The notes under the pieces: generated by a model | Told to the model about the DNA's origin: nothing | Databases searched by the model: none | What the model saw: the letters and a program-made list of their open reading frames with translations, nothing else | Part shown: one piece after another, positions 6,130 through 62,986 of the stretch | Layout: each line of letters opens with the position of its first letter | Position numbering within the stretch: position 1 is the stretch's first letter | Made by a program: the position numbers and the translations under genes | Source of the DNA: Chloroflexia bacterium | GTDB taxonomy: Bacteria; Chloroflexota; Chloroflexia; QHBQ01; JADMIH01 | DNA: 64,000 nucleotides | Direction: 5' to 3' | Assembly: GCA_035274425.1 (NCBI GenBank) | Contig: DATEOC010000031.1 | Coordinates: 1,995 to 65,994, forward strand

Positions 6130-6197
6130 AAAAAGGATAAGGGATAAAGGATAAATTATGACAGGCAGTTTTATCCTTTATCCTTTATCCTTTTTCC
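6130..6197. repeat. Hairpin of GGATAAA-type modules in the accD-accA spacer. The right arm encodes accD's last 6 codons (RIKDKG).
   Basis: aaaaaggataagggataaaggataaa ... ttatcctttatcctttatcctttttcc. The 28-mer aaggataagggataaaggataaattatg recurs at 29731. Confidence 0.6.
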
Positions 6198-7073
6198 TTC
6201 CGTAAGGTAGAGTCGTAGGAGCTTGCTGATTGTGGGCTTTAGCTCCCTGCGGGGGGATACCATATCTATCATGCCATGCTTGAGCAGGAACTCGGCGGTC
6301 TGGAAATCGGAGGGGAGCTTCTGCTTTATGGTCTGCTCGATGACGCGAGGCCCCGCGAAGCCTATCAATGCGCCCGGCTCGGCCATTACCACGTCGGCTG
6401 AGGAGGCGTAAGATGCGGTGACGCCACCCATGCAGGGATCGGTTAGCACGGAGATGTGGGGGAGGCGGGCCTCGCTGAGGGCGCTGAGGGCGGCGGTGGT
6501 CTTCGCCATCTGCATGAGGGAAAGTATACCTTCCTGCATACGCGCTCCGCCGGAGGCCGATATGGTGACGAGACCTACGCCTGTGGTTACGGCCATTTCG
6601 GCGGCACGCACCAGTTTCTCGCCATAGACCGAGCCCATGCTGCCGCCAAAGAAGCGGAAATCGCTCACCACGAGCATGGCAGGCGTGTCCTCTATGGTAG
6701 CGGGGCCGTAGACGAGCGCTTCAGGTATGCCCGCTTTTTTGGTGGTATCGTCGAGCTTGTCGGAGTAGCGCTGGCCGAGAGATACAAAGTCTATGGAGTC
6801 GACGGGTAAGATGTCCTCTCCCTCTTCATGGAAGCTTCCCGTGTCAGCGAGGTATTCGATGCGCTCGTCGGAGGAGAGGCGGAAGTGGTAGGTACATTTC
6901 TGGCAGACTTTGAGGTTGTTTTGCAACTCGCGGGTGTAGAGTAGCTCGTTGCACCTGGGGCACTTGGTCCAGATGTCCCCGGCGGCATCGCGCTCGGACT
7001 TGTCCTTTGGGTTAGCACGCGTGTCCTGGCGCTTCTCCTGACCTATTGAAAAGTAGCGCGGGCGGCGCAGCAT
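6171..7073 (-). CDS. accD: Acetyl-CoA carboxylase carboxyltransferase beta subunit with N-terminal Zn ribbon
   Basis: CPRCNELLYTRELQNNLKVCQKCTYHFR zinc finger followed by a carboxyltransferase domain. Confidence 0.9.
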   Translation of the reverse strand: MLRRPRYFSIGQEKRQDTRANPKDKSERDAAGDIWTKCPRCNELLYTRELQNNLKVCQKCTYHFRLSSDERIEYLADTGSFHEEGEDILPVDSIDFVSLGQRYSDKLDDTTKKAGIPEALVYGPATIEDTPAMLVVSDFRFFGGSMGSVYGEKLVRAAEMAVTTGVGLVTISASGGARMQEGILSLMQMAKTTAALSALSEARLPHISVLTDPCMGGVTASYASSADVVMAEPGALIGFAGPRVIEQTIKQKLPSDFQTAEFLLKHGMIDMVSPRRELKPTISKLLRLYLTEGKRIKDKG

Positions 7074-15415: not shown

Positions 15416-17305
15416 ATGGGCCGGAAAGGATATATGAAGATGAGAAAGTGGCTACCGATCTTATTGGCTATCTGCCTGGTACTATCATTGGCGCAAGCTG
15501 GGGGAGAAGCTGGCGCTTCACCTTCTTTGCAGGATGATAGCAGGCACTTCCCGGAGACGGGGCAAACGGTAAAGGGTGCGTTTTTGCAGTACTGGGAGGA
15601 GCATGGAGGGTTGGCACAGCAAGGCTTACCCATTTCGGCGGAGATGCAGGAGCGGAGTGAGACAGACGGCAAGATGTACACGGTGCAGTACTTCGAGCGT
15701 GCGGTGTTTGAGCTGCACCCAGAGAACGAAGCTCCTCACGATGTGCTTCTCTCCCTGCTGGGGGTCTTCGAGTATAAGCGCAAGTACGGCGCGGGTGGAG
15801 CGCCCGATCAGCATGCAAGCGCCGACAGCCCGTTCTTATTCAAAGAGACGGGCAAGACGCTGGGAGGCAAGTTCAGGCGATATTGGGAGACGCACGGGGG
15901 ATTGCCCCAGCAAGGTTTCCCGATCTCCGATGAGTTTCAGGAGAGGAATGAGCTAGACGGCAAGATTTACACGGTGCAGTACTTCGAGCGGGCGGTGTTT
16001 GAGCTACACCCGGAGAATGCCGGTACAGAGTACGAGGTGTTACTGTCGCACCTGGGCAGGTTCCGGTACGATAGGCGGGGCGTACCTGCCGAAGCTACCA
16101 GGTGGTTGCGGGAGCACATGGTCCCTTTGAAGACGGCGGAACCTACCGACGACTTCAGCGATCTGATGCACCTGAAGCAATTCATCGGTGACGCACGGAT
16201 CGTCGGATTGGGGGAGGCAGCGCACGGCGGGCGGGAGTTCTTCACGATGAAGCACCGCCTCCTGAGGTTCCTGGTGAAGGAGATGGGTTTTACGCTCCTT
16301 GGGTTTGAGGACGGATGGGCGGAGTCGTTGAGCGCCAGCGATTACGTAGAGAGTGGCAAGGGTAGCGCCAAGAGCGCAGTGAATCGACTCCTCGCCTGGC
16401 CCTGGAAGGCGCAGGAAGTGGTTGACATGGTCGAATGGATGCGGGGTTATAACGAGGGCAGGGGAAGTGCTCCCGCGATCAGCTTCCAGGGGTTCGACAT
16501 GCAAGAGGCTAGCGGGGCGATGAACTTCGTGATTGCTTATCTGCAAACGGTAGACGCGCCGGCAGCAGAGCGAGCAATCGAGCGATACAAGTGCCTGGGC
16601 GCGGGGTTCGATTATCGCTCACTACCGCAGGATGTCAAAGCGCAGTGTCGTGCCGCATTGCAGCAAGTCCACGACGAGATGGCCGCGAACCGGGGGGCTT
16701 ACGAGGCAGCATCCTCCTCTCAGGCTTTTACCCAGGCCCAGTTCGGGGCGCGCGTGGTCTTGCAGACGGAAGAGCTATTCAGCACGCCAGACAATTTCGA
16801 CGTGCGGGACCACTATATGGCTGAGAACGTATCGTGGCTGCTGGAGCAACGCGGACCTAACGCTAAGGCTGTGGTGTGGGCGCACAATGGACACGTCGGC
16901 AATCTCCAGTATGCAGGGCACGATTATCCCAGTATGGGAATGCATTTGAGGCAGAAATACGGTGATGATTACAAGGTAATCGGCTTTGAGTTCAACGGAG
17001 GCTCCTTTAACGCCACATCGGGGCGGCTCCAGGTAAACACAGTTAAGGGAGCAACTGAAGGGAGCTACGGGCAATACTTCCACAGCGCTGGTATACCTTT
17101 GTTCTTCCTCGACCTGCGTGGTGTCAGGGCTGCTGGAGGGTCTGGCGAAACAGATTGGCTGGTAGGCCCCAGGAGGATATGGGATATAGGGCACCGTTTC
17201 CACCCAGGCGATCCCCTGGCCACTACAGCGGAGGTGAGCCTTCCCCAGGTATTTGATGGAGTTATCTTTGTAGACACGATAAGTGCGACGACTTTGCTGC
17301 CGTGA
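15416..17305 (+). CDS. Secreted erythromycin-esterase (Ere/ChaN) family protein with two N-terminal LGFP-like repeats
   Basis: Two ~70-aa repeats FPETG.T..G.F..YWE.HGGL.QQG.PIS.E.QER.E.DGK.YTVQYFERAVFELHPEN; then ARIVGLGEAAHGGREFFTMKHRLLRFLVKEMGFTLLGFEDGWAE, typical of erythromycin esterase. Confidence 0.75.
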   Translation: MGRKGYMKMRKWLPILLAICLVLSLAQAGGEAGASPSLQDDSRHFPETGQTVKGAFLQYWEEHGGLAQQGLPISAEMQERSETDGKMYTVQYFERAVFELHPENEAPHDVLLSLLGVFEYKRKYGAGGAPDQHASADSPFLFKETGKTLGGKFRRYWETHGGLPQQGFPISDEFQERNELDGKIYTVQYFERAVFELHPENAGTEYEVLLSHLGRFRYDRRGVPAEATRWLREHMVPLKTAEPTDDFSDLMHLKQFIGDARIVGLGEAAHGGREFFTMKHRLLRFLVKEMGFTLLGFEDGWAESLSASDYVESGKGSAKSAVNRLLAWPWKAQEVVDMVEWMRGYNEGRGSAPAISFQGFDMQEASGAMNFVIAYLQTVDAPAAERAIERYKCLGAGFDYRSLPQDVKAQCRAALQQVHDEMAANRGAYEAASSSQAFTQAQFGARVVLQTEELFSTPDNFDVRDHYMAENVSWLLEQRGPNAKAVVWAHNGHVGNLQYAGHDYPSMGMHLRQKYGDDYKVIGFEFNGGSFNATSGRLQVNTVKGATEGSYGQYFHSAGIPLFFLDLRGVRAAGGSGETDWLVGPRRIWDIGHRFHPGDPLATTAEVSLPQVFDGVIFVDTISATTLLP

Positions 17306-17336
17306 CGATAGACGATAGACGATAGACGATAGACGA
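17304..17336. repeat. (GATAGAC)n tandem heptamer run starting at the stop codon of the esterase gene
   Basis: gacgatagacgatagacgatagacgatagacga; inverted copies at 52505-52527. Confidence 0.5.
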
Positions 17337-17381
17337 AATGTCAGGTTCCGTCCTTCGTCCAACCAGCGCCTTCGCATCCGC

Positions 17382-17410
17382 TTGACTATGCCCCCATGCG
17401 GTGGTATACT
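17382..17410 (+). promoter_or_regulatory. Sigma70-like promoter for the riboswitch-controlled operon
   Basis: TTGACT, 17 nt, TATACT, about 28 nt upstream of riboswitch P1. Confidence 0.45.
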
Positions 17411-17438
17411 CGCGGCATAGACAACTGAATATGTGTAC

Positions 17439-17639
17439 CACAGAGGTCGCCCGAAGCACGGAAGCGAGGGCGTCAATGGGGGAAGCCGGTGTAGTCCGGC
17501 GCTGTCCCGCAACTGTAGTCCGAAAACGAGTTGAAAGTTCAAGGTTCCAGGTTCAAGGAAGACCGTACTGCCGGTAACTTTGAACGTTGAACTTTGAACC
17601 TGAAACTAATCCCGGAGAGCCAGGATACCCACCTCTGTG
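17439..17639 (+). promoter_or_regulatory. Cobalamin (AdoCbl) riboswitch aptamer
   Basis: Core GGGAAGCCGGTGTAGTCCGGCGCTGTCCCGCAACTGTA; B12 box GAGCCAGGATACCCACC; P1 cacagaggt/acctctgtg. The variable peripheral stem holds a GTTCAAGG-repeat hairpin (17529-17607). Confidence 0.8.
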
Positions 17640-17792
17640 AGACTCCAACACCTTCGCGAGAAAGGGGGATAGGAGCGATGACGCAGGCATGCACCTTGCC
17701 GCGCATACCGCCTTAGGCCAGAAGGCAGTAAGCAGAGGGCAGTAGGCAGTAACGGGTCGTCGGGACGGGGAGCGAGGCTCCCAATTATGTCA

Positions 17793-17824
17793 CCCTTGTC
17801 GCAATGACAAGGGATTTTTGTTTT
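17793..17824 (+). terminator. Intrinsic terminator serving as the riboswitch expression platform
   Basis: cccttgtc gcaat gacaaggg then atttttgtttt; RBS aggagga then ATG 17891. Confidence 0.7.
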
Positions 17825-17890
17825 AGTGGGATGGTATGCCGTAGGAGCGTGCCGACGGCACGCCCCTACAAGACATGACAGGAGGAGAAG

Positions 17891-19009
17891 ATGAACACGA
17901 TAGGATGGAAGATTAGAAAAGCGGGTGCCGCATGGCTGGCGGCGTTGATGGTGTTTATTATGGCTGCGGGGGCGGTATCGGCTACGCCGGAGTTCCCGGA
18001 CGTTGCTAATGCCGCGCTCACGTGGATGAAGGGGCAGCAGCAGCCTGATGGGTCGTTCCCGGGCTTCGGGGCGGGGTCGTCGGTTGATGCGCTGCTCGCT
18101 TTCGTGTCGGCGCAGGATGATAAAGAGGCGGGGCACGAGGACCTGCATATGTATACCGGGGAGGGGAGCAAGCTCATCACCTTCCTTGAGAGCAAGGTCG
18201 GCGACCTGACAAAGACGCCGGGCGGCGCGGGCAAACTGCTCGTCGCAGTGGCGGGGAACAGGATGGATGGGAAGGCGTTCGGCGGGGTAGACCTGATAGG
18301 CGTGATAAATGCCTCTTACGACGCGAAGACTGGGCAGTACGGCCAGGATGTAATCGGCCATGCCTTCGCCATCCTGGGTCTTGCGGCAGCGGGTGAGGAA
18401 GTGCCCCTTCTTGCGGCCAACTTTCTCGCCGATGCGCAGGGGCCGGAGGGTGGCTGGGCCTTCTCAGGAGACACCGCTCCTGGAGCGGCTGACACCAACA
18501 CTACGGCAGTCGCGTTGCAGGCGCTCCTCGCCATGCACGTTGGCACGAGCGACCCTACGATAGATAGAGCGGGGAAATGGTTGGCGGAGCAGCAGAATGA
18601 AGATGGGGGCTTCCCTTACCAGAAGGGAGGGGAGTTCGGCAGCGACAGCGATGTGAACTCGACAGCGTATGTGGCGCAGGCGTTTACTGCCCTGGGGATG
18701 TACGACGAAGCGGGGATGGCGAAGAGCTTCATCCGCTCTATGCAACTGGAGAGCGGCGCGTTCCAGTGGATGAAGTCGGAGCCGGGCGAGAACGCGGGTG
18801 CGACCTACCAGGCGATACCCGCGCTGCTGGACGCTACGCTGGTGGCTCCGGCTGGTGTGAGCAGAGAGGGGGGTGGAGTCGTGCCGGGTGGTATGCCGAC
18901 GACGGGGCAAGGTGCTATAGGAGTGGCTATAGCGCTATCCTTGCTCGCAACGCTGGCGCTGGGCGCAGGCATCTCCATGCGGAGAACAGCTTTCTCTTCG
19001 AGAAAGTAA
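17891..19009 (+). CDS. Secreted alpha/alpha-toroid (prenyltransferase / squalene-cyclase-like repeat) protein with C-terminal TM anchor; putative cobalamin-capturing alpha-domain protein
   Basis: Signal peptide; QW-type repeats QQQPDGSFPG, PEGGWAFSGD, QQNEDGGFPYQKGG, QLESGAFQW; C-terminal hydrophobic helix plus basic tail RRTAFSSRK. Confidence 0.7.
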   Translation: MNTIGWKIRKAGAAWLAALMVFIMAAGAVSATPEFPDVANAALTWMKGQQQPDGSFPGFGAGSSVDALLAFVSAQDDKEAGHEDLHMYTGEGSKLITFLESKVGDLTKTPGGAGKLLVAVAGNRMDGKAFGGVDLIGVINASYDAKTGQYGQDVIGHAFAILGLAAAGEEVPLLAANFLADAQGPEGGWAFSGDTAPGAADTNTTAVALQALLAMHVGTSDPTIDRAGKWLAEQQNEDGGFPYQKGGEFGSDSDVNSTAYVAQAFTALGMYDEAGMAKSFIRSMQLESGAFQWMKSEPGENAGATYQAIPALLDATLVAPAGVSREGGGVVPGGMPTTGQGAIGVAIALSLLATLALGAGISMRRTAFSSRK

Positions 19010-19023
19010 TAGACAATATTAAT

Positions 19024-19071
19024 TTGAGAAATCATCAAAATCACCTTCGGTGATTTTGATGATTTCTCAAA
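19024..19071 (+). other. Perfect 22-bp stem-loop between operon genes 1 and 2 (attenuator or mRNA-stability/processing hairpin)
   Basis: ttgagaaatcatcaaaatcacc ttcg ggtgattttgatgatttctcaa. Confidence 0.6.
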
Positions 19072-19116
19072 GATAGTTTTCAAGGGTTTTATCCCGGTAT
19101 CGTGCCGGGGGCGTTT

Positions 19117-20286
19117 ATGAAACGAATTGATCGAACATTCGCATATATTTTAGGGCTAATGGCGCTGGTCGCCCTGGGGGGCGGTGCACATCTGACCTCA
19201 GCGCAGGGTGCGCAGAGCAGGGCGGGACTTGTGGTGCAGTTCGGGGACGGGAGCGTGCGAAGCTACTGCATCGCGTTCGAGAGGGAGAGCATCACCGGCT
19301 TCGACCTGCTGCTCAAGTCGGGCCTGAATGTGACAGCCGAGGGATTCGGCGGCATGGGCGGGCTGGTGTGCAAAATCGAAGCAGAGGGGTGCGATTACCC
19401 GGGTGAGGCGTGCGTGTGCAAGTCGTATGGGCCGAACGGGGTCTACTGGAGCTACCACCACCTGCGTCAAGGGAAGTGGAAGACATCTTCGATGGGAGCG
19501 GGCGGCTACCGAGTCCGCAACGGCGAGGTAGACGGTTGGGCGTGGAGCGCGGGTAAGCCACCCGTTGTGAGAACATTCGACCAGTTGTGTGGGGCTGCGC
19601 AACCGAGGCCGACTAATACGCCCGTACCTCCCACAGCTACACCTCGCCCGCAGCCGTCCAACACGCCTAAGCCACCTACGGCTACAGCCACTCGGCAACC
19701 AGCCAGGCCGACCGGTACAGCTACGGCGCGGGCAGCTACCTCGACCCCTGTAGCGGCACGACCTACGAATACGAAAGAGCCACAGGTGGTCAGGCCATCC
19801 GCAACCAAGCAAGTAATCCGGCAGGTAACACCTACACGGCAGCCACCCCTTGTCATCGCAACCTCGACGCCGAAGAAGGGCATTACATCTACATCTACAT
19901 CGATGTATACACCTACCTCTGTCCCTACAAGACGTCCGACCCAGGTGGCACCAACACCTGTGCCCACAGAGGCCAGCCCAACACGAGTGGATGCGGTCAC
20001 TCCTACAGCGAGCGCGACACAGACGACAATACCACCCACCGGGACAAATACGCCTATACCGACGCCTACAGAAACCGCCATTCAAACCCAAACCAGCACT
20101 CCGGCTGCACCACTCGCCACGAATAGCCCAACCCAAACCCCGACCCCCGACCCTCAACCCCCATCTACAGATACCGCCCGCACTATCAGTATGGTTATCG
20201 GCGCTGCCGTCATTGGCGGACTGCTGGTGTGGGGAGGGGTGACGCTGGCGACGCGGCGAGTTGGTGGGAAGAGCAGGAGAAGCTAG
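19117..20286 (+). CDS. DUF4430-like (transcobalamin/intrinsic-factor beta-domain-like) surface protein: signal peptide, globular domain, long Pro/Thr linker, C-terminal TM anchor
   Basis: GFDLLLKSGLNV ... GGLVCKIEAEG ... YWSYHHLRQGKW ... GYRVRNGEVDGWAW fits the DUF4430 pattern; about 200 aa of P/T-rich linker; terminal TM plus RRVGGKSRRS. The start may be GTG 19102. Confidence 0.65.
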   Translation: MKRIDRTFAYILGLMALVALGGGAHLTSAQGAQSRAGLVVQFGDGSVRSYCIAFERESITGFDLLLKSGLNVTAEGFGGMGGLVCKIEAEGCDYPGEACVCKSYGPNGVYWSYHHLRQGKWKTSSMGAGGYRVRNGEVDGWAWSAGKPPVVRTFDQLCGAAQPRPTNTPVPPTATPRPQPSNTPKPPTATATRQPARPTGTATARAATSTPVAARPTNTKEPQVVRPSATKQVIRQVTPTRQPPLVIATSTPKKGITSTSTSMYTPTSVPTRRPTQVAPTPVPTEASPTRVDAVTPTASATQTTIPPTGTNTPIPTPTETAIQTQTSTPAAPLATNSPTQTPTPDPQPPSTDTARTISMVIGAAVIGGLLVWGGVTLATRRVGGKSRRS

Positions 20287-20287
20287 C

Positions 20288-21358
20288 GTGTGGGATGATG
20301 GCGTGGTGAGGTTCCACGTTGGGGCGTGGCTGCTGTGGCTCATGGCGGCTATGCTCGGCGCGCTCCTGACGCGCAATCCCATCTACCTCGCGCTGGTCAT
20401 AGCTGTGGCCTTGCTGGTAAATGCCCGGTTGAGTGGGAGTGCGGGGGATAATCAGGGAGATACGACGCGACGTGCGACCGCGGGCTTCATAAAGGTGGTG
20501 GTCGTGCTGACGGTGCTGGTTACCATCTTCAAGGGGTTGTGGATGAACAACGGCCAGACTGTGCTGTGGCGGCTCCCCGACTGGTGGCCCGACTTCGGGC
20601 GCGTTGCTACGTTGGAGGGCTTATTAGCCGCGGGGTTGGACGCGATGCAGATACTGGCTGTGCTGGCGACCTTCATGGCATTCAGCGCGGGGGTCGACTA
20701 TTACGCCCTTCTCCGTGCGACGCCACAATCTATGAGGCAAGTGGGGCTGGTGACATCTATTGCGCTCACATTTGTGCCTCAAACGGTAACGCGCTTCGGA
20801 GAGGTGCGTGAGGCGCAGGCCCTGCGCGGCCACAGGATCAGGCGGGTGGGGGACCTGGTGCCGCTGGTAGTGCCGCTCCTGGGTGGCGGCATAGAGCGCT
20901 CGATAGACCTCGCAGAGGCGATGGAGGCGAGGGGATTTAGTAGAGACCTGGCAGGGGGGCGGAGGATGCCGCCCATAGTTGTGCAGCTAGGAATAGCGGC
21001 GGGGCTGGCGCTTGTGCTGGCGGGAGGGACGCTGTTCGCATTCTGGCCCCCGGAGATGCATTGGGCCGATTGGGTGCTGATGTTCGCGGGACTGCTCCTT
21101 ATCGCGGGCACGCTGTGGAGCGTGGGGAGAGGAGCGAAGCGCACCCGCTACAGACATACAGTGTGGCGCGAGCGGGATACGGTGCTAGCAGCGATTTCGC
21201 TCGGTATCGTAGCGATATTAGGCACCTACAAGCTGCTGGAGCCTGCCGTGCTGGGGTACAACCCCTTCCCACGCGTAAGTATGCCCACTTTCGATGTTGT
21301 GCTCGGATTGGCACTGGTAGCACTCATCTCTCCTGTGCTCATTTTGGGGAGAGAATAA
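20288..21358 (+). CDS. ecfT: ECF transporter transmembrane (T) component (CbiQ family)
   Basis: Polytopic membrane protein with ALRGHRIRRVGDLV...AMEARGF signature; GTG start with RBS AGGAGA 8 nt upstream (the ORF tracker's TTG 20261 overlaps the upstream gene). Confidence 0.8.
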   Translation: MWDDGVVRFHVGAWLLWLMAAMLGALLTRNPIYLALVIAVALLVNARLSGSAGDNQGDTTRRATAGFIKVVVVLTVLVTIFKGLWMNNGQTVLWRLPDWWPDFGRVATLEGLLAAGLDAMQILAVLATFMAFSAGVDYYALLRATPQSMRQVGLVTSIALTFVPQTVTRFGEVREAQALRGHRIRRVGDLVPLVVPLLGGGIERSIDLAEAMEARGFSRDLAGGRRMPPIVVQLGIAAGLALVLAGGTLFAFWPPEMHWADWVLMFAGLLLIAGTLWSVGRGAKRTRYRHTVWRERDTVLAAISLGIVAILGTYKLLEPAVLGYNPFPRVSMPTFDVVLGLALVALISPVLILGRE

Positions 21359-21359
21359 A

Positions 21360-21712
21360 GACGGAACCGCAAAGACGCCAAGAGCGCCAAGAAACCGCCA
21401 AGATTTTTAGGGTTATGTTCACCGCAGAGACGCTGAGAACGAGTCTAATAAGAATGTTGAAACAAGAGTACCTATGGATAACGAAGCACCCTTTTGCCTG
21501 TCACTCCGAACGAAGTGAGGAATCTCCAAGCTTGGACGTATGGATAAATTTCTAGATTCTTCGCTTCGCTCAGAATGACAGGCAAACTATTACAGTTCTT
21601 GCACATTTCTGAATGGCGCGAAGAATGATAGGCAGAAGCGGGTTGTTCTTACAAAGCTTCTGGGGTTTCATAGAAAGATCAGGCAATACGCACGCACCAC
21701 GAATTAAGCAAG
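21360..21712. repeat. 350-bp non-coding spacer inside the ECF operon carrying CGCCAAGA and TTCACCGCAGAGACGC modules and an imperfect ~95-bp inverted repeat
   Basis: acgccaagagcgccaagaaaccgccaagattttta (near-identical copy at 52443); gcctgtcactccgaacgaagtgaggaatc / gattcttcgcttcgctcagaatgacaggc. Confidence 0.45.
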
Positions 21713-23443
21713 ATGTCTAAGCCGATCATCTCCATCAACAATGTGACTTACCGCTACCCGGGCGGGGATGGGGCCGCGTTGCGTGATTTCTCGCTTGATG
21801 TTGAAGAGGGGGAGTTTCTGTTGGTGGCCGGGGTGTCGGGGGCGGGGAAGTCTACGTTGCTGAGATTGCTCAATGGGCTTGTGCCGCACTTCTATGGAGG
21901 TGAGGTGGCGGGAAGCGTTATGGTAGCGGGAAAGGACCCTGTGAAGTTGGGGCCTGGAGAGATGAGCGAGGTGGTCGGGCTGGTCTTCCAGGACCCGGAA
22001 GCGCAGATGGTGGCCGAGCGGGTAGAGGACGAGGTAGCGTTCGGCATGGAGAACGCGGGACTGCCTCTTGCCCTGATGCGCAAGCGAGTGGAGGAGAGCC
22101 TGCACGCCCTCAGCATCGAGCATCTGCGCGGGAGGAGGGTGAGCACGTTGTCTGGTGGAGAGAGGCAGCGCGTGGCTATCGCGTCGGTGCTGACGATGCA
22201 GCCTCGGGTGCTCGTGTTGGATGAGCCTACGTCACAGCTGGACCCACAATCAGCTGAGGAGGTGCTCGACAGCGTCGTGAGGCTGAACAAAGACCTGGGT
22301 CTGACGGTAATCATGTCGGAGCACCGGCTGGAGCGCGTTGTGCAGCACGTTGATCGCATCCTATACATGGCCCCCGGCGGCGAGACGGTGTTGGGAGAAC
22401 CCCGCGAGGTGCTATCGCAGATACCAATTGCCCCACCTCTAGTGCAGGTAGGTAAATTGCTAGGCTGGAGTCCCCTGCCGCTTAGCATCAAGGAGGCGAG
22501 AAGGTTTCTAGTAGGGGTCGGGGATCGGGGGTCGGTAATTACGAATTACGAATTACGAATTACGAATTGCGGGTTGCCGGAAGGTGAACAGGGCATGATA
22601 AATCATGCCCCTACAGAACGCTCTACCGACCCCCGGCCCCTGGCCCCCGACCCTCAATCCAAAATCGAGAATGTTTGGTTTGGGTATGGCGGGCGGGAGG
22701 TGCTACGCGATTTCAGCATGGAACTGCGGGCCGGGGAGATAACGGCGCTTATGGGGCGGAATGGGGTGGGAAAGACTACAATACTCAGGCTCATATTGGG
22801 ACTGTTGAAGCCCGCAAAGGGGAAGGTGGTTACGGAGGGATTGGATACGAGGCATACACCGTTGGAGGAGATGTCCAGGGTGGTAGGGTACGTGCCGCAG
22901 CAGCCTGACGTGTTGCTTTTTGCCGACACGGTAAGTGGAGAAATAGATTTTACGCGGCGGGCGCATAGATTGCCACCGGACGGCGCGGCCTTGCTGGAGA
23001 ACCTGGGGCTGACTCGATACCGCGAGCACGACCCCCGCGACCTGAGCGTGGGGGAGAGGCAGCGGGTGGCGCTGGCGGCGGTGCTGGCGGGGGAGCCTCG
23101 AATGCTCGTGCTGGACGAGCCTACACGTGGCCTTGATTACTTGCAGAAAGAGGCGCTCGCGGAGATACTGCGCGACTTACGCGACAAGGGGCGGACGATA
23201 GTGCTGGCGACCCACGACGTAGAGCTTGCGGCACAGATAGCTGACCGGGTTGTGCTGCTGGGAGATGGAGAGATAATAGCGGATGGTCCAGCCCGCGAGG
23301 TAATGTCAGGTACGCTCGCCTTCTCCACCCAGGTAAGTAAGCTCTTCCGCGATCCGAGGTTTGTGACGGTTGGGGACGTGGACGCTATTCACCGCAGAGA
23401 CGCAGAGAGCGCAGAGGTTTTTGGAGTGACGCATGATGCGTGA
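21713..23443 (+). CDS. Fused tandem ECF ATPase EcfA-EcfA' (two ABC domains in one 576-aa ORF)
   Basis: Walker A GVSGAGKST and GRNGVGKTT; signatures LSGGERQRV and LSVGERQRV. The ~50-aa inter-domain linker is encoded by an in-frame repeat hairpin element (22514-22670), and the second domain keeps its own RBS and ATG (22595). Confidence 0.85.
   Translation: MSKPIISINNVTYRYPGGDGAALRDFSLDVEEGEFLLVAGVSGAGKSTLLRLLNGLVPHFYGGEVAGSVMVAGKDPVKLGPGEMSEVVGLVFQDPEAQMVAERVEDEVAFGMENAGLPLALMRKRVEESLHALSIEHLRGRRVSTLSGGERQRVAIASVLTMQPRVLVLDEPTSQLDPQSAEEVLDSVVRLNKDLGLTVIMSEHRLERVVQHVDRILYMAPGGETVLGEPREVLSQIPIAPPLVQVGKLLGWSPLPLSIKEARRFLVGVGDRGSVITNYELRITNCGLPEGEQGMINHAPTERSTDPRPLAPDPQSKIENVWFGYGGREVLRDFSMELRAGEITALMGRNGVGKTTILRLILGLLKPAKGKVVTEGLDTRHTPLEEMSRVVGYVPQQPDVLLFADTVSGEIDFTRRAHRLPPDGAALLENLGLTRYREHDPRDLSVGERQRVALAAVLAGEPRMLVLDEPTRGLDYLQKEALAEILRDLRDKGRTIVLATHDVELAAQIADRVVLLGDGEIIADGPAREVMSGTLAFSTQVSKLFRDPRFVTVGDVDAIHRRDAESAEVFGVTHDA
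22514..22670. repeat. Repeat hairpin element lying in frame within the ecfA-ecfA' linker
   Basis: ggggtcggggatcgggggtcgg + (aattacg)4-5 + palindrome gggcatgataaatcatgccc + ccgacccccggcccctggcccccgaccc + ccaaaatc. Confidence 0.6.
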
Positions 23444-23565
23444 TGCGTGAGGCTTGAAACGCAAAGACGCAAAGGTGGCAAAGGGCAGGAAGATATTATG
23501 GTTGGATGCTAACAATGGATGTAGCGGTAGTAAATCCGAAATCCGAAATCCGAAATTCGAAATCG
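23388..23565. repeat. Composite module block spanning the ecfAA' C-terminus, spacer and ecfS N-terminus
   Basis: ttcaccgcagagacgcagagagcgcagagg; gtgacgcatgatgcgtgatgcgtgagg; gaaacgcaaagacgcaaaggtggcaaaggg; (aaatccg)3aaattcgaaatcg. Confidence 0.5.
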
Positions 23566-24405
23566 TCCAGGGCGATAAGCGCGGTGATTCTCGCGCTTAC
23601 AACGCTGCTTGGGATATGGGCGTTCGTTTACCCTTTCTTTATACCGCCTACCGCAGCTGGGGAAGCGCAGGCACATGCGTCGGATGCGCCCCTTATCTTT
23701 CTGCTGGTGATGGCGCTGTCGCTCGCGGCTATCGTTGCCGACCTGGAGACTCGGACGATGGACAGCAAGACCGTCGCGCTGCTGGGGGTGCTGGTGGCGA
23801 CTAATTCGCTGCTGAGGCCGTTGCAGGGGCCTGGGGGGTTCTCGGTATTCCTTGTGCTGCCGATGCTGTGCGGGTATGTCTTCGGGGGGCGATTCGGGTT
23901 CCTGATGGGGTCGCTGTCGGTGCTGGTGTCGGCCCTCTTCACGGGCGGGGTCGGGCCGTGGATGCCGTTCCAGATGCTGGCTATTGGGTGGGTGGGGTTG
24001 CTATCGGCAGCATTACCTCAGAAGATTATGTCAAGCATATGGGGAGGGAGAGCTGAGAAATGGGCACTTGCGGGGTGGGGCGTCGTGATGGGGTTGCTGC
24101 TTGGGGCGGTGCTGAACCTATGGTTCTGGCCCTATATCAGCCAGAACGCGGACCTGCCAGCCAGCCAGCTATGGCAGCCGGGGGCGGGGTTGATAGAGGC
24201 TCTGCAACGCTATGGTGCGTTCTATCTGGCAACCTCCCTCCCCTTCGACATCTGGCGTGCTGCCGGAAACGCTCTCTTCCTGTTGGTGCTGGGGCCGCCA
24301 GTGCTGAGGCTGCTCAGGAGGTATAAGCAGCGCTTTTTCTTCGTTGAGCTTGATAGATTTAATCACAAAGAACACAAAGACACGAAGAACACAAAGGATG
24401 ATTAG
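23506..24405 (+). CDS. ECF transporter substrate-specific (S) component candidate, putatively cobalamin-specific (CbrT-like role)
   Basis: Small ~6-TM membrane protein last in the ECF operon. The first 20 and last 15 codons are repeat-encoded, and the true start may be GTG 23583. Confidence 0.55.
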   Translation: MLTMDVAVVNPKSEIRNSKSSRAISAVILALTTLLGIWAFVYPFFIPPTAAGEAQAHASDAPLIFLLVMALSLAAIVADLETRTMDSKTVALLGVLVATNSLLRPLQGPGGFSVFLVLPMLCGYVFGGRFGFLMGSLSVLVSALFTGGVGPWMPFQMLAIGWVGLLSAALPQKIMSSIWGGRAEKWALAGWGVVMGLLLGAVLNLWFWPYISQNADLPASQLWQPGAGLIEALQRYGAFYLATSLPFDIWRAAGNALFLLVLGPPVLRLLRRYKQRFFFVELDRFNHKEHKDTKNTKDD

Positions 24406-27510: not shown

Positions 27511-27658
27511 GACGGGACGACGGACGACGGACGACGGTATAAAGCGTGATGCGTGATGCGTGAATCCTCAATACATCTCTGCGCCTCTGCGTCTCTGCGG
27601 TGAATTCTATCGCCTATCGTCCATCGTCCATCGTCCATCGTCCATCGTCCGTCGTCGG
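27511..27658. repeat. Nested modular hairpin: (GACGACG)n ... GTGATGCGTGA x2 ... rc(TTCACCGCAGAGACGCAGAG) ... (CCATCGT)n
   Basis: gacgggacgacggacgacggacgacgg / ccatcgtccatcgtccatcgtccatcgtccgtcgtcgg. Confidence 0.7.
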
Positions 27659-42283: not shown

Positions 42284-42983
42284 CTCTGAGTGCTCCCACC
42301 ACGCTGCCCGCTATGCCGCCTGCCAGTATGTACCACGTGCCCGGCAGCCACCATTTGGCTACTACCGCCACCAGCGCGGCGACTCCCCATGGGAGGAGGT
42401 CGGACTTGCCGCGCCACATCCCCGCGAGGAGAGCTGTGAAGACCGCCGCGAACATGAAATCGAGACCCCACCGCACCAGGTCTTCCTGACGCAAGGCAGA
42501 CCCAGCAACCGTGCCGGCTACAGTGCCGCCTACCCAGCCAGTGAATAGGGTCAGGCCGCTCCCAAGGATGAAGGCAGCGTCACGCTCACCTTCCCTGTAC
42601 TCCTTGATGGAGAGCGCCCAGGTTTCGTCGGTCATGAAGAAGATGGAGCCGTAAACTTTAGACGCGGGGAGCTTGGAGAGCCAGGGGCGTAGCGCCGCGC
42701 CCATCAGGACGTGCCGCAGGTTCACGATGAGAGTGGTGAAGATAATGGTGAATATGGGGAGAGGGCTTATCCATAACTGCAAAGCGATAAACTGCGCCGC
42801 GCCCGCGAAGACCAGCCCACTCATCATCGCAGCCTCTACCAGAGTCAAGCCTGACTGACGAGCCAGCACCCCGAACACCGCCGCGAAGGCCGTGGCACTC
42901 ACTGCCAGTGGCAGGGTACGCCTCACGCCGAGCAATAGCCCGGCGCGAGCGAATGTTGGCTTATCTTCAGGAGTGGGGTTCAA
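42273..42983 (-). CDS. azlC: Branched-chain amino acid exporter AzlC
   Basis: AzlC-family membrane protein (GSIFFMTDETWALSI). The start codon appears to be TTG, embedded in the repeat hairpin's left arm. Confidence 0.8.
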   Translation of the reverse strand: MNPTPEDKPTFARAGLLLGVRRTLPLAVSATAFAAVFGVLARQSGLTLVEAAMMSGLVFAGAAQFIALQLWISPLPIFTIIFTTLIVNLRHVLMGAALRPWLSKLPASKVYGSIFFMTDETWALSIKEYREGERDAAFILGSGLTLFTGWVGGTVAGTVAGSALRQEDLVRWGLDFMFAAVFTALLAGMWRGKSDLLPWGVAALVAVVAKWWLPGTWYILAGGIAGSVVGALRDAG

Positions 42984-43073
42984 AGTTCAAGGTTCAAAGT
43001 TCAAGGTTCAAGGTTCAAGGTCTTAATTGGTCCCCTATTCGTGGTTAGACCTTGAACTTTGAACTTTGAACTC
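42978..43073. repeat. GTTCAAGG/GTTCAAAG module hairpin between the ClbS-like gene and azlC
   Basis: ggttcaaagttcaaggttcaaagttcaaggttcaaggttcaaggtc ... gaccttgaactttgaactttgaactc. Confidence 0.7.
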
Positions 43074-52392: not shown

Positions 52393-52623
52393 GACGACGG
52401 ACGACGGAGTGATACGTGATACGTGATGCGTGAACGTTTAACCGCCAAGACGCCAAGAGCGCCAAGATACCGCCAAGATTTTTATGGATTAATAGATTAA
52501 GTTGCCTATCGTCTATCGTCTATCGTCCCTCATCACGTTTCACGTTTCGCGTATCATACCGTTGTCCGTTGTCCGTTGTCCGTTGTCCGTTGTCCGTTGT
52601 CCGTTGTCCGTCGTCTGTCGTCC
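52393..52623. repeat. Large composite hairpin: (GACGACG)n-(GTGATACGTGA)n-(CGCCAAGA)4 ... rc(GATAGAC)3-rc(GTGAAACGTGA)-(CCGTTGT)7-(CGTCGTCTGTCGTCC)
   Basis: Left arm 52393-52436, right arm 52505-52623; divergent-promoter region between the cupin and DUF2382 genes. Confidence 0.7.
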
Positions 52624-55189: not shown

Positions 55190-56623
55190 TTATGGGATAT
55201 GTAAACTCTCTAGTATTGCCTCTCCCACTTTCCACACGTCGCCAGCACCCATCGTCAGCAGCACGTCGCCGGGACGCAGCTCGTCAAGCAAGGTGTTTGT
55301 AGCATCTTCCAGGGTTGGGACGAATGTGGCATTTTCTCCTGGCATTTTCTCGACGATGTGGCGGCCACTCATGCCGAGGGTGTCGCGCTCGCGGGAAGCG
55401 TAGATTTCGGTGACTAATATGTGGTCTGCGGCGCTCAAAGAGGATGCGAAGTCGTCCAGAAAGTCGCGGGTGCGGGTGTATGTGTGAGGTTGGAACAGGA
55501 CGACCAGGCGGTTGGAGGGGTAACGCTGGCGTGCGGCCTGCAATGTGGCGTCTATCTCCGTGGGGTGGTGGGCGTAGTCATCCACGACGGTGATGCCTTT
55601 GACCTCGCCCTTGACCTCGAAGCGACGACCCGCACCTACAAAATCGCCAAGCAATCGCGCCGCATCTTCAGCGGGCACACCCACTTCGACGCAAGCAGCT
55701 AACGCCGCGAGTGAGTTGAGGGCGTTATGCTTTCCAGGTATCTGTAAGGATACCCTGGTCAATTCCTCCCTATCTCGGAACGCTATATAGCTCGTACCAC
55801 CTTGCTCATTCGCCTCTATATTGCGCGCCTGCCAGGCTGAAGCGCCGTTTGTCCCATAAAATGGAGTCCTGTAGGGGAGGTCGCCATCAGCGCTGTGAGC
55901 AAATATAAGCCCTTCCAGGATGGCTCTGACGCCGTAAGCGTCATCGCAGAGTAACAATAGGCCCCCAGGGCGCACACTCAGAGCAAACTGCAAGAATGCC
56001 TGGTGGATAGCTAGATGGCTGCCGTAATACTCAAGATGGTCGCTCTCGACATTGGTGATGACGGCCACGTCGGGGCGCAGGTGGAGGAAAGAGCGGTCAT
56101 ACTCGTCCGCCTCTGCCACAAGCTCTTCGCCGGAACCCCAGTGCCCCCCCGGCCCCAACCCTCGAATGGTCCCACCGATCATGTACGAGGGGTCGCGTCC
56201 GGCTTTCGATAATATCCAGGCGATCATCGATGAGGTGGTGGTCTTGCCGTGCGTGCCTGCCACCGCGATGCCGCGTCGCAGGTCCATAAGCTCCCCAAGG
56301 AGGGCGGCGCGCTTTATGACGGGTATGCCACGCTCGTGGGCCGTAACAAGCTCAGGGTTATCGTCGGAGAGGGCGGCAGTCACTACCACGCGAGTAGCGT
56401 CGCCCAGGTTGTCCGCGCTATGCCCGATGTGGATGCGCGCACCACGCGCCTCAAGCTCCTCGGTAGCATCGGAAGCCGCCATGTCGGACCCCGAAACGGA
56501 CGCGCCCAGGTCAAGCAATGCAGAAGCAAGAGCGCTCATACCCGCTCCACCAATGCCGATGAAATGCCACGATTCCGAATTTTGAATTTTGAATTTTGAA
56601 TTTTGAATTTTGGGTGTGGTCAT
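55190..56623 (-). CDS. murC: UDP-N-acetylmuramate--L-alanine ligase
   Basis: HFIGIGGAGMSALA; GTHGKTTTSSMI. Its N-terminal MTTPKIQNSKFKIQNSE is encoded by the (gaatttt)n repeat. Confidence 0.9.
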   Translation of the reverse strand: MTTPKIQNSKFKIQNSESWHFIGIGGAGMSALASALLDLGASVSGSDMAASDATEELEARGARIHIGHSADNLGDATRVVVTAALSDDNPELVTAHERGIPVIKRAALLGELMDLRRGIAVAGTHGKTTTSSMIAWILSKAGRDPSYMIGGTIRGLGPGGHWGSGEELVAEADEYDRSFLHLRPDVAVITNVESDHLEYYGSHLAIHQAFLQFALSVRPGGLLLLCDDAYGVRAILEGLIFAHSADGDLPYRTPFYGTNGASAWQARNIEANEQGGTSYIAFRDREELTRVSLQIPGKHNALNSLAALAACVEVGVPAEDAARLLGDFVGAGRRFEVKGEVKGITVVDDYAHHPTEIDATLQAARQRYPSNRLVVLFQPHTYTRTRDFLDDFASSLSAADHILVTEIYASRERDTLGMSGRHIVEKMPGENATFVPTLEDATNTLLDELRPGDVLLTMGAGDVWKVGEAILESLHIP

Positions 56624-56692
56624 GAAGCAATCTGGCTCGCCCGCGAAATCTCACTCCCAATTCAAAATTGAGAATTAAGAATTCAAAATTCC
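56575..56692. repeat. (GAATTTT)n / (AATTCAAAATT) inverted hairpin spanning the murC start
   Basis: ccgaattttgaattttgaattttgaattttgaattttggg ... cccaattcaaaattgagaattaagaattcaaaattcc. Confidence 0.7.
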
Positions 56693-57326: not shown

Positions 57327-57446
57327 GGACGACAGACGACGGACGACGGACGACGGATGATAGGCAAGGACTGAGGACTGAGGACTCAGGACTGAGGGGT
57401 AAACCACCTGTCGTCCGTCGTCCGTCGTCCGTCGTCTGTCGTCTGG
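57327..57446. repeat. Hairpin (GACGACR)n - (GGACTGA)4 - rc(GACGGAC)n
   Basis: ggacgacagacgacggacgacggacgacgg ... ggactgaggactgaggactcaggactgagg ... cctgtcgtccgtcgtccgtcgtccgtcgtctgtcgtctgg. Confidence 0.7.
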
Positions 57447-62815: not shown

Positions 62816-62827
62816 GGGGGTTTAAGT

Positions 62828-62986
62828 CCAAAGTTCGAGGTTCGAAGTTCGAGGTTCAAGGTTCAAGGTTAGAACAAGGAAAAGGATAACCTATATTTTC
62901 CAAAGAGGCAATAAGCCTTGTTACCTCTGGGACTTTGAACTTTGAACTTTGAACTTTGAACTTCGAACTTTGAACTTTAGACTTCG
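62828..62986. repeat. GTTCGAGG/GTTCAAGG module hairpin between ftsI and murF
   Basis: ccaaagttcgaggttcgaagttcgaggttcaaggttcaaggtt ... gggactttgaactttgaactttgaactttgaacttcgaactttgaactttagacttcg. Confidence 0.7.

Follow-up and report, generated by a model that had tools for sequence, protein, structure and literature searches.

What a genomic repeat is doing inside a riboswitch aptamer, and how the riboswitch that carries it would control the genes downstream, are the questions raised by a leader in an uncultured Chloroflexia bacterium (assembly GCA_035274425.1). The leader lies in a 64,000-nucleotide stretch of contig DATEOC010000031.1 (positions 1,995 to 65,994 of the forward strand). This whole stretch is referred to here as the window, and coordinates are those of the window. 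An initial annotation of the DNA had described, at 17382-17890, a complete cobalamin riboswitch unit consisting of a promoter, an aptamer, a terminator and a ribosome-binding site (RBS), in which a repeat hairpin of the genome occupied the variable arm of the aptamer. We followed up this description by covariance model searches, folding, and comparison with leaders at related loci (designated L001, L002, etc.). All of the described elements were confirmed where they had been placed, and the interpretation given to them was upheld. The results support a vitamin B12-dependent OFF switch that acts through the terminator, a reading to which we assign a probability of roughly 0.8, and in which a short upstream open reading frame (uORF) is probably involved. 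The two noteworthy features of the leader are the recent insertion of the repeat hairpin at the tip of the P6 helix, which has parallels in related riboswitches, and, within the expression platform, a conserved uORF whose ending is Pro-Pro-stop. Neither of them overturns existing knowledge of cobalamin riboswitches.

We evaluated the aptamer with the Rfam covariance model RF00174 (Cobalamin, clan CL00101), whose gathering score is 31.5 bits. The match at 17427-17650 on the + strand scored 62.4 bits (E 4.7e-13), about twice the threshold, and extended over the full length of the model (positions 1-189); no other Rfam family was over threshold in the 64-kb window. The aptamer core (GGGAAGCCGG...CAACTGTA), the B12 box (GAGCCAGGATACCCACC, 17617-17633, aligned to the B12 box of RF00174) and the closing helix P1 (cacagaggt 17439-17447 / acctctgtg 17631-17639), which had been claimed to fit the cobalamin consensus, were all found at the expected coordinates. 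The model alignment and the minimum free energy (MFE) fold also gave the conserved P2 arm (17448-17472), P4 (17484-88 / 17495-99) and the base of P6 (17519-22 / 17613-16), and the C-rich loop L5 lies at 17503-17511 (all on the + strand). We regard this RNA as almost certainly a functional cobalamin riboswitch. In itself it is an ordinary further member of RF00174, one of the commonest riboswitch families, and it shares with that family the B12 box, P1, the P3-P6 four-way junction, the C-rich L5, the position 5' of B12-related transport genes and a terminator-type expression platform. It differs from the family in the 79-nt heptamer-repeat hairpin at the P6 tip, and in a long expression platform (240 nt) that holds the uORF and a second heptamer array.

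The inserted hairpin spans 17529-17607 (+) and falls within the variable P6 insertion of the Rfam alignment. Its outermost pair is A17529-U17607, and with 29 pairs it folds at -32.7 kcal/mol (z = -5.5 against shuffles). The 5' arm is a (GTTSAAR)n array, GTTGAAA GTTCAAG GTTCCAG GTTCAAG, the 3' arm is an (AACTTTG)n array, AACTTTG AACGTTG AACTTTG AACCTGA, and the loop is at 17559-17577. GTTCAAG/ACTTTGA-type hairpins were also seen at 42977-43072 and 62824-62986 of the window, which bears out the suggestion that the variable arm is filled by a repeat hairpin of the genome.

When the leader was aligned with those of L002, L003 and L004, the window showed about 80 extra nucleotides, all confined to the P6 tip. 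Apart from this tip, the window leader and its orthologues were near-identical through promoter, aptamer, the hairpin that follows P1, and terminator. The length of P6 was estimated as the stretch between CAACTGTA and the B12 box. This stretch is 101 nt in the window, but 21 nt in L048, 19 nt in L002, 19 nt in L049, 23 nt in L050 and 23 nt in L052. These are the five closest relatives, with a downstream protein 90% (L048), 87% (L002), 81% (L049 and L050 each) and 77% (L052) identical to that of the window. In L003, L004, L006, L007, L008, L035 and L056 the stretch is 15-25 nt. By this comparison, the 79-nt hairpin is a recent insertion at the tip of an ancestrally short P6, since the five closest orthologues have 19-23 nt at this place. 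The insertion has not altered the predicted core. The RF00174 score was the same with the insert (window) and without it (L002), in-silico deletion of the hairpin, along the lines proposed in the initial annotation, left P1, P2 and P4 unchanged, and the MFE fold gave P1, P2, P4 and P6 in either case. Growth of the insert in situ from the ancestral loop (TTCTAAGGAAG in L002 as against TTCAAGGAAG in the window) was also considered; this idea is inseparable from coincidence, because the GTTCAAG unit recurs at two other loci, and it was dropped.

A long P6 arm brings to mind the class I (Cbl-I) riboswitches, in which P6 is extended by an elaborate and conserved set of elements (P7-P11), folded back onto the binding pocket (PMC7367189, in which the Cbl classes and the L5-L13 kissing loop are defined). 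We found no equivalent of this P7-P11 extension in the orthologues, where P6 is a simple hairpin of 15-25 nt. The long P6 arm of the window was thus ruled out as a class I extension, being a lineage-specific heptamer insertion with no conserved sequence. The ancestral form of the aptamer, as represented by L002 and L048, has the hybrid layout of the 'atypical' yvrC riboswitch of B. subtilis, in which a loop-stem-loop P2 arm (a class I trait) is combined with a short, simple P6/P7 (a class II trait) (PMC7367189). The yvrC riboswitch controls a B12 uptake system, as the present one probably does, and promiscuous binding of AdoCbl, MeCbl and OHCbl is a further mark of the yvrC type. The likeness is one of secondary-structure layout alone, and not of sequence or three-dimensional structure. 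The P7/L7 stem-loop of yvrC points away from the core (PMC7367189). The inserted hairpin folds on its own and, by analogy with the solved short-P6 structures, would project from the core, and a yvrC-like geometry may explain why an insertion at the apex of P6 is tolerated.

We consider it very probable that the hairpin is a neutral, tolerated passenger rather than a functional part of the switch. An alternative is that it is a functional peripheral element, either class I-like, with a role in the adenosyl pocket, or a selected module for folding, stability or protein binding, and that heptamer hairpins recur at the P6 tip through selection that favours them there. Heptamer hairpins of similar size (~65-80 nt, ~4 units per arm) do occur exactly at the tip in six independent orthologous riboswitches, and the A-rich internal loop AAAACGA is kept beside the P6 base. 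However, the repeat units are wholly different between lineages and match repeats found generally between genes of the same genome, a P6 tip of 15-25 nt suffices for most orthologues, the five closest relatives included, and an equivalent of the class I P7-P11 (PMC7367189) is absent from the orthologues. The G-U wobbles, which maintain the pairing of the arms on the transcribed strand (-32.7 kcal/mol for the + strand, -26.7 kcal/mol for the - strand), could be read as a sign of selection on the RNA, but the + strand is likewise the better folder at 42977 and 62833, two sites flanked by - strand genes. Further, non-heptamer expansions of the P6 tip (L053, L055) and expansions of the P2 tip (L049, L050) fit a simple tolerance of inserts in apical loops. 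A functional hairpin is therefore unlikely. Still more improbable, to a degree that we hardly credit it, is that the hairpin is an assembly artefact or chimera, or that the insertion has disabled the riboswitch and left a decaying element. The sequence does come from a metagenome assembly, repeats are easily misassembled, and the insert is confined to the window lineage among close relatives. However, a separately listed contig (L001, Logan SRR5195144) has the identical 224-nt aptamer including the hairpin, and analogous inserts are present in five other unrelated contigs. The aptamer core positions and P6 base pairs are also all intact, as is the entire expression platform, and the covariance model score equals that of the insert-free orthologue.

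The same P6 tip carries heptamer-array hairpins with unrelated units in at least five other orthologous riboswitches. The units are ATTTTRG / CCAAAAT in L005 and L030, RTTYTGG / ATCCGCA in L054, GTCAAGT-like in L021, GTTGCAR-like in L034 and GTCAGGT-like in L013. To see how common such arrays are, tandem repeats were listed for the whole window with Tandem Repeats Finder (85 rows). Period-7 arrays made up 39 of these rows, or ~0.6 per kb, and 27 of the 39 were intergenic, the non-coding share of the window being ~15%. They have many different units, and often two complementary arrays form hairpins of 70-155 nt; examples are at 6132-6199, 27515-27656, 42977-43072, 52393-52623, 56577-56691, 57327-57443 and 62824-62986. 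Period-7 arrays were also present in the closer relatives of the window, and not in distant ones. In being tandem repeats of period 7, multi-copy and enriched between genes, these arrays are like the short tandemly repeated repetitive (STRR) elements of cyanobacteria, which are intergenic heptamer tandem repeats.

Other observations concern the same repeats. The GTTCAAG-type hairpins at 42977-43072 and 62824-62986 fold better as + RNA (-44.4 vs -36.7 and -80.7 vs -60.2 kcal/mol, respectively), because G-U wobbles turn into A-C mismatches on the - strand; the genes that flank both hairpins are on the - strand. Heptamer arrays were also found directly 3' of other cobalamin/AdoCbl (adenosylcobalamin) aptamers or of their terminators (L009:1353-1459, L014:226-288, L006:1349-1385), and the riboswitch leaders of this group are generally colonised by heptamer arrays.

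A search of the accessible literature for heptanucleotide repeats in Chloroflexia, and for repeat hairpins inside riboswitch aptamers, found no description of either. Abundant intergenic heptamer repeats are known from cyanobacteria, Beggiatoaceae and some Bacteroidetes, with TAACTGA occurring in Beggiatoaceae and cyanobacteria (PMC4679880). The arrays described here are likewise abundant, concentrated in intergenic regions and often located just 5' of start codons, but there are many units per genome, and these are frequently in complementary pairs that give a long hairpin. A parallel within a structured RNA is the tRNA-Leu(UAA) group I intron of Nostoc, where, according to the account in PMC3488679 (citing Costa et al. 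2002), degenerate heptanucleotide repeats form the arms of the P6b hairpin. In both cases, a peripheral stem of a functional RNA with defined structure ends in a heptamer hairpin whose length varies between lineages. They differ in the RNA (a riboswitch rather than an intron) and in the phylum (Chloroflexota rather than Cyanobacteria), and also in that here the unit differs completely between lineages and close relatives are without the insert. We read this as the work of a pervasive, lineage-specific heptamer-repeat process by which all permissive sites are filled, the chief one within the aptamer being the apical loop of P6.

We then turn to the elements through which ligand binding would be converted into gene control. 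The promoter that had been noted upstream of the aptamer, TTGACT-17-TATACT, is present at 17382-17410 (+). It is of the sigma-70 type with a TG-extended -10, agrees with the consensus at 10 of 12 positions, and was the sole promoter-like site that a promoter scan found in 17000-18200. The promoter is conserved, since ~18 of 21 related leaders have TTGACW-17/18-TGnTATACT about equally far from the aptamer, and it would place the start of transcription at about 17417-17419. An inverted repeat around the promoter (17382-92 / 17414-24) was dropped from consideration, as it is not conserved in L002. Just before the promoter lies a GACGATA array of 4.7 copies (17304-17336), whose start coincides with the stop codon of the erythromycin-esterase-family gene lying upstream (15416-17305); no terminator was predicted for this gene.

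Downstream of the aptamer, a terminator scan confirmed the GC stem and U-tract that had been placed at 17793-17824. This intrinsic terminator has a 9-bp stem (17793-17801 / 17805-17813) and the U-tract ATTTTTGTTTT, which runs to 17824; together with the part that enters an alternative pairing, the element covers 17788-17824 (+). The terminator is conserved in the orthologous leaders of other Chloroflexia. Its 5' arm, CCCUUGUCG, is nearly invariant, while its 3' arm varies with the pairing kept. Such a pattern would follow from two alternative partners for the 5' arm. The RBS that had been reported after the terminator, AGGAGGA, is at 17880-17886 and serves the ATG at 17891 of the first regulated gene (17880-17893, +). 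It is strong, and is unpaired in the MFE fold.

The initial annotation did not include three elements of the expression platform, namely a P13 hairpin, the Pro-Pro-stop uORF and the second heptamer array (17714-17751). The P13 hairpin (17643-17675, +) is nearly invariant in the orthologues. It is formed by a module directly after P1, ACUCC-N4-CCUUCGCGAGAAAGGGGG(A)UAGGAGCGAUG, and folds at -10.4 kcal/mol. The outer helix pairs CUCC (17643-46) with GGAG (17672-75), and the inner helix pairs CCUUC (17651-55) with GGGGG (17664-68) around the loop GCGAGAAA; in an alternative register, CCUU (17651-54) pairs with AAGG (17662-65) and the loop is CGCGAGA. For the G-rich 3' strand of P13 (17662-17672), three partners can be envisaged, namely its own 5' strand together with L5, the 5' arm of the terminator, and the ribosome. 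As regards L5, its CUGUCCC could form 7 pairs with GGGAUAG (-13.3 kcal/mol), as against -5.7 kcal/mol with the L13 loop CGCGAGA. Covariation at these positions is limited (L036 and the 'CCAC' L5 group), and is compatible with either partner.

As regards the terminator, the predicted antiterminator consists of the pairings 17656-59/17799-802, 17662-66/17793-97 and 17668-71/17788-91, with an energy of -17.2 kcal/mol; the terminator hairpin itself has about -12 to -13 kcal/mol. An alternative fold of the kind that the initial annotation had asked for thus exists, and the predicted structures show a GC-rich stem with a U-tract, whose 5' arm can pair in two mutually exclusive ways. In 15 orthologues the antiterminator duplex has -12 to -20 kcal/mol and is usually stronger than the terminator hairpin. 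When the 3' arm of the terminator was withheld, the antiterminator was the MFE structure in four of seven leaders (window, L002, L003 and L006). One compensatory change, C-G to U-A, was seen in L056. The sequence CAGAGG at 17730-35, which mimics the 5' strand of P1, was considered as another antiterminator and rejected, as it is not conserved in L003 and L004.

Several results weigh against this assignment of partners. The kissing partner is ambiguous, since the better one, GGGAUAG, is in a stem/internal loop and not in a terminal loop. The antiterminator was not the MFE structure in L005, L007 and L008, even with the 3' arm withheld. Almost all of its pairs are invariant, so that covariation neither supports nor refutes them; RNAalifold on P13-terminator chimeras gave 9 pairs, of which 8 were invariant. 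Composition-matched shuffles of the G-rich strand matched the observed duplex energy in 7-57% of trials, and the energy is thus weakly discriminating. Finally, at equilibrium the terminator together with P13 (-69.0 kcal/mol) is favoured over the enforced antiterminator (-60.1 kcal/mol), and any switch must therefore be kinetic. We consider the chances that these specific antiterminator pairs are right to be evenly balanced.

The uORF (17678-17716, +) has 12 codons and reads MTQACTLPRIPP followed by the stop codon. Its Shine-Dalgarno sequence, GGAG (17672-75), is located in the outer helix of P13 and adjoins the L5-complementary strand. The ATG, the frame and the Pro-stop ending are kept in 12 of 14 distinct leaders, where the ORFs are 6-12 codons long and the wobble bases vary. 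Pro, encoded by CCA, CCT or CCG, invariably comes last, before TAG, TAA or TGA as the stop, and the codon ahead of it specifies Pro in 12 of the 14 leaders and Gly in L005 and L030. Between L006 and L007, all three codons that differ are synonymous. This pattern reads as the signature of a translated peptide and not of an RNA motif, and we think it likely that the uORF is translated. On the other side, the Shine-Dalgarno sequence is only 2 nt from the ATG at 17678, and two leaders are without the canonical uORF, the frame being broken by a 2-nt indel in L050 and the ATG being replaced by ATA in L054.

In every orthologue, a hairpin of the spacer sequesters the uORF start codon. For the window and the leaders closest to it, the MFE fold pairs the second heptamer array (17714-17751, +; TAGGCAG-type, found with Tandem Repeats Finder and shared with L002, L048 and L049) back onto the 3' half of the uORF. 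The uORF stop codon is 45-86 nt 5' of the terminator, and the separate, unpaired RBS comes after that. Between the terminator and the RBS there is also a near-perfect 14-bp hairpin (17841-17869, +), which is present in L002 and absent in L048 and L049. It leaves the RBS uncovered, the change seen in L002 improves its pairing, and L048 has GGGCACA-type heptamers instead; this hairpin is apparently lineage-specific filler.

Pro-Pro-stop endings terminate slowly and depend on elongation factor P (EF-P), and the regulatory peptide TnaC ends in Pro-stop. In Salmonella, the mgtA leader combines an Mg2+ riboswitch with a proline-codon leader peptide, mgtL, and with Rho-dependent termination. The present leader shares with it the combination of a riboswitch and a short proline-containing uORF; the ligand is another one, and no homology is implied. 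For B12 itself, the precedent is the ppe2 riboswitch of M. tuberculosis, in which the L13 hairpin masks the start site of a uORF, uPPE2 (PMC11260477). Common to both leaders is that the hairpin bearing the partner of L5, which in the present leader is a candidate partner, masks the Shine-Dalgarno sequence and start site of a short uORF; here, the Shine-Dalgarno sequence lies within P13 and the frame is conserved. This makes the uORF the first candidate for what the switch controls. The uORF of the present leaders differs from that of ppe2 in having 6-12 codons and a Pro-Pro-stop ending, and in the intrinsic terminator and the separate, strong RBS that come after it. Since it does not overlap the main gene, termination-reinitiation is impossible here, unlike in ppe2.

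This precedent raises the possibility that, as in M. tuberculosis ppe2, uORF translation is the main target of the switch, and that the terminator is constitutive and leaky, or else coupled to translation. Stalling at Pro-Pro-stop would then set the level of read-through or of protection from Rho, giving a combined riboswitch and peptide attenuator. Besides the precedent (PMC11260477), the coding signature with its Pro-Pro-stop ending, the sequestered start codon and the placement of the Shine-Dalgarno sequence in P13, beside the L5-complementary strand, all speak for such an arrangement. However, the stop codon is well upstream of the terminator (the 45-86 nt given above), the main gene has its own strong and unpaired RBS, and L050 and L054 retain the terminator without having the canonical uORF. 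In addition, when a ribosome footprint at the uORF start or stop was forced to be single-stranded in seven orthologues, the terminator stayed in every MFE structure. This last result also counts against a part for the uORF in the reading that we prefer. A simple ribosome-dependent attenuation of the trp type (2:3 / 3:4) was likewise unsupported, as the terminator persists in the constrained folds. We regard control mainly through the uORF as a possibility to be kept in mind, though an improbable one.

The reading that we prefer is that of an OFF switch acting through the terminator, and from the folds and comparisons above we infer its direction and its steps as follows. Transcription would start at the conserved extended -10 promoter. 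With B12 present, the contact between L5 and P13 would be stabilised and P13 closed, so that the G-rich strand would be kept from the 5' arm of the terminator and the uORF start site would be masked; the hairpin at 17793-17813 would then terminate transcription, and the uptake operon would be OFF. Without B12, the G-rich strand would pair with the 5' arm of the terminator and RNA polymerase would read through, and the uORF would be translatable.

A more far-reaching picture has two parts, and we hold the two jointly as rather doubtful. One is a three-layer attenuator, of a kind not yet described for B12, in which the kissing contact would gate both an arrest-type peptide with a Pro-Pro-stop ending and the antiterminator. 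If this were true, the operon would respond to B12 jointly with the status of translation, proline or EF-P. The other is a lineage-specific process that would repeatedly build or insert complementary heptamer arrays at hairpin tips, and that would have remodelled P6 at least six separate times. If true, this would be a Chloroflexia counterpart of the P6b repeats of the Nostoc intron, and would provide a natural map of insertion tolerance for the aptamer.

The regulated operon extends over 17891-24405 (+). The first gene (17891-19009, +) encodes a 372-aa secreted alpha/alpha-toroid protein of the NCBIfam SCO2321 family, with weak squalene-cyclase/prenyltransferase-like matches. Its C-terminus has MPTTG, a hydrophobic stretch and RRKAF, which is a sortase-type anchor. 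A sequence-profile search of this protein against the PDB gave only squalene-hopene/terpene cyclase alpha/alpha-toroid folds, and no transcobalamin or intrinsic factor. It is followed by a 394-aa SCO2322-like protein (19102-20286, +), CbiQ/EcfT (20261-21358, +), a fused EcfA-A' ATPase (21713-23443, +) and the S component of an energy-coupling factor (ECF) transporter (23506-24405, +). The operon probably serves corrinoid/B12 uptake by an ECF-type transporter with a surface-anchored alpha/alpha-toroid protein, and the SCO2321-family and SCO2322-like proteins are candidate cell-surface proteins for corrinoid capture.

Many Chloroflexia have pairs of SCO2321/SCO2322-like genes behind B12 riboswitches and beside ECF modules. 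RF00174 or the related AdoCbl family RF01482 is present 5' of homologues of the first gene in more than 25 further loci, and B12 control is therefore the rule for this family. The exact 372-aa protein was found solely on metagenome contigs, and its relatives are all from metagenome-assembled genomes of Chloroflexia/Chloroflexota. In some orthologous operons, a Diphthami_syn_2 (PF01902) gene lies between the SCO2322-like gene and that of the ECF T component (L053:4293-5036, L055:4391-5089). A heptamer hairpin is also present within the operon itself, at 22514-22653, in frame within the ORF at 21713-23443 and in the linker between the two ATPase domains (GGGGTCG x3, AATTACG x4.6, CCGRCCC x4). 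It gives the impression of a repeat that once lay between ecfA and ecfA' and through which the reading frame now runs as a fusion.

With the P6 hairpin, we have a clear-cut example of a structured regulatory RNA that repeats of the genome have colonised. The occurrence of closely related leaders that have the ~80-nt hairpin or are free of it, together with five independent analogous insertions, amounts to a natural experiment. It marks the P6 tip of short-P6 cobalamin riboswitches as an open site, at which tags or sensors could usefully be built into the aptamer. The uORF between the kissing-loop hairpin and the intrinsic terminator suggests that riboswitch/leader-peptide hybrids, so far shown for B12 in M. 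tuberculosis, occur in Chloroflexia as well, with a different output. The operon, with its sortase-anchored alpha/alpha-toroid protein, SCO2322-like protein and ECF transporter, points to a widespread and uncharacterised candidate system for B12 capture in Chloroflexia and Actinobacteria.

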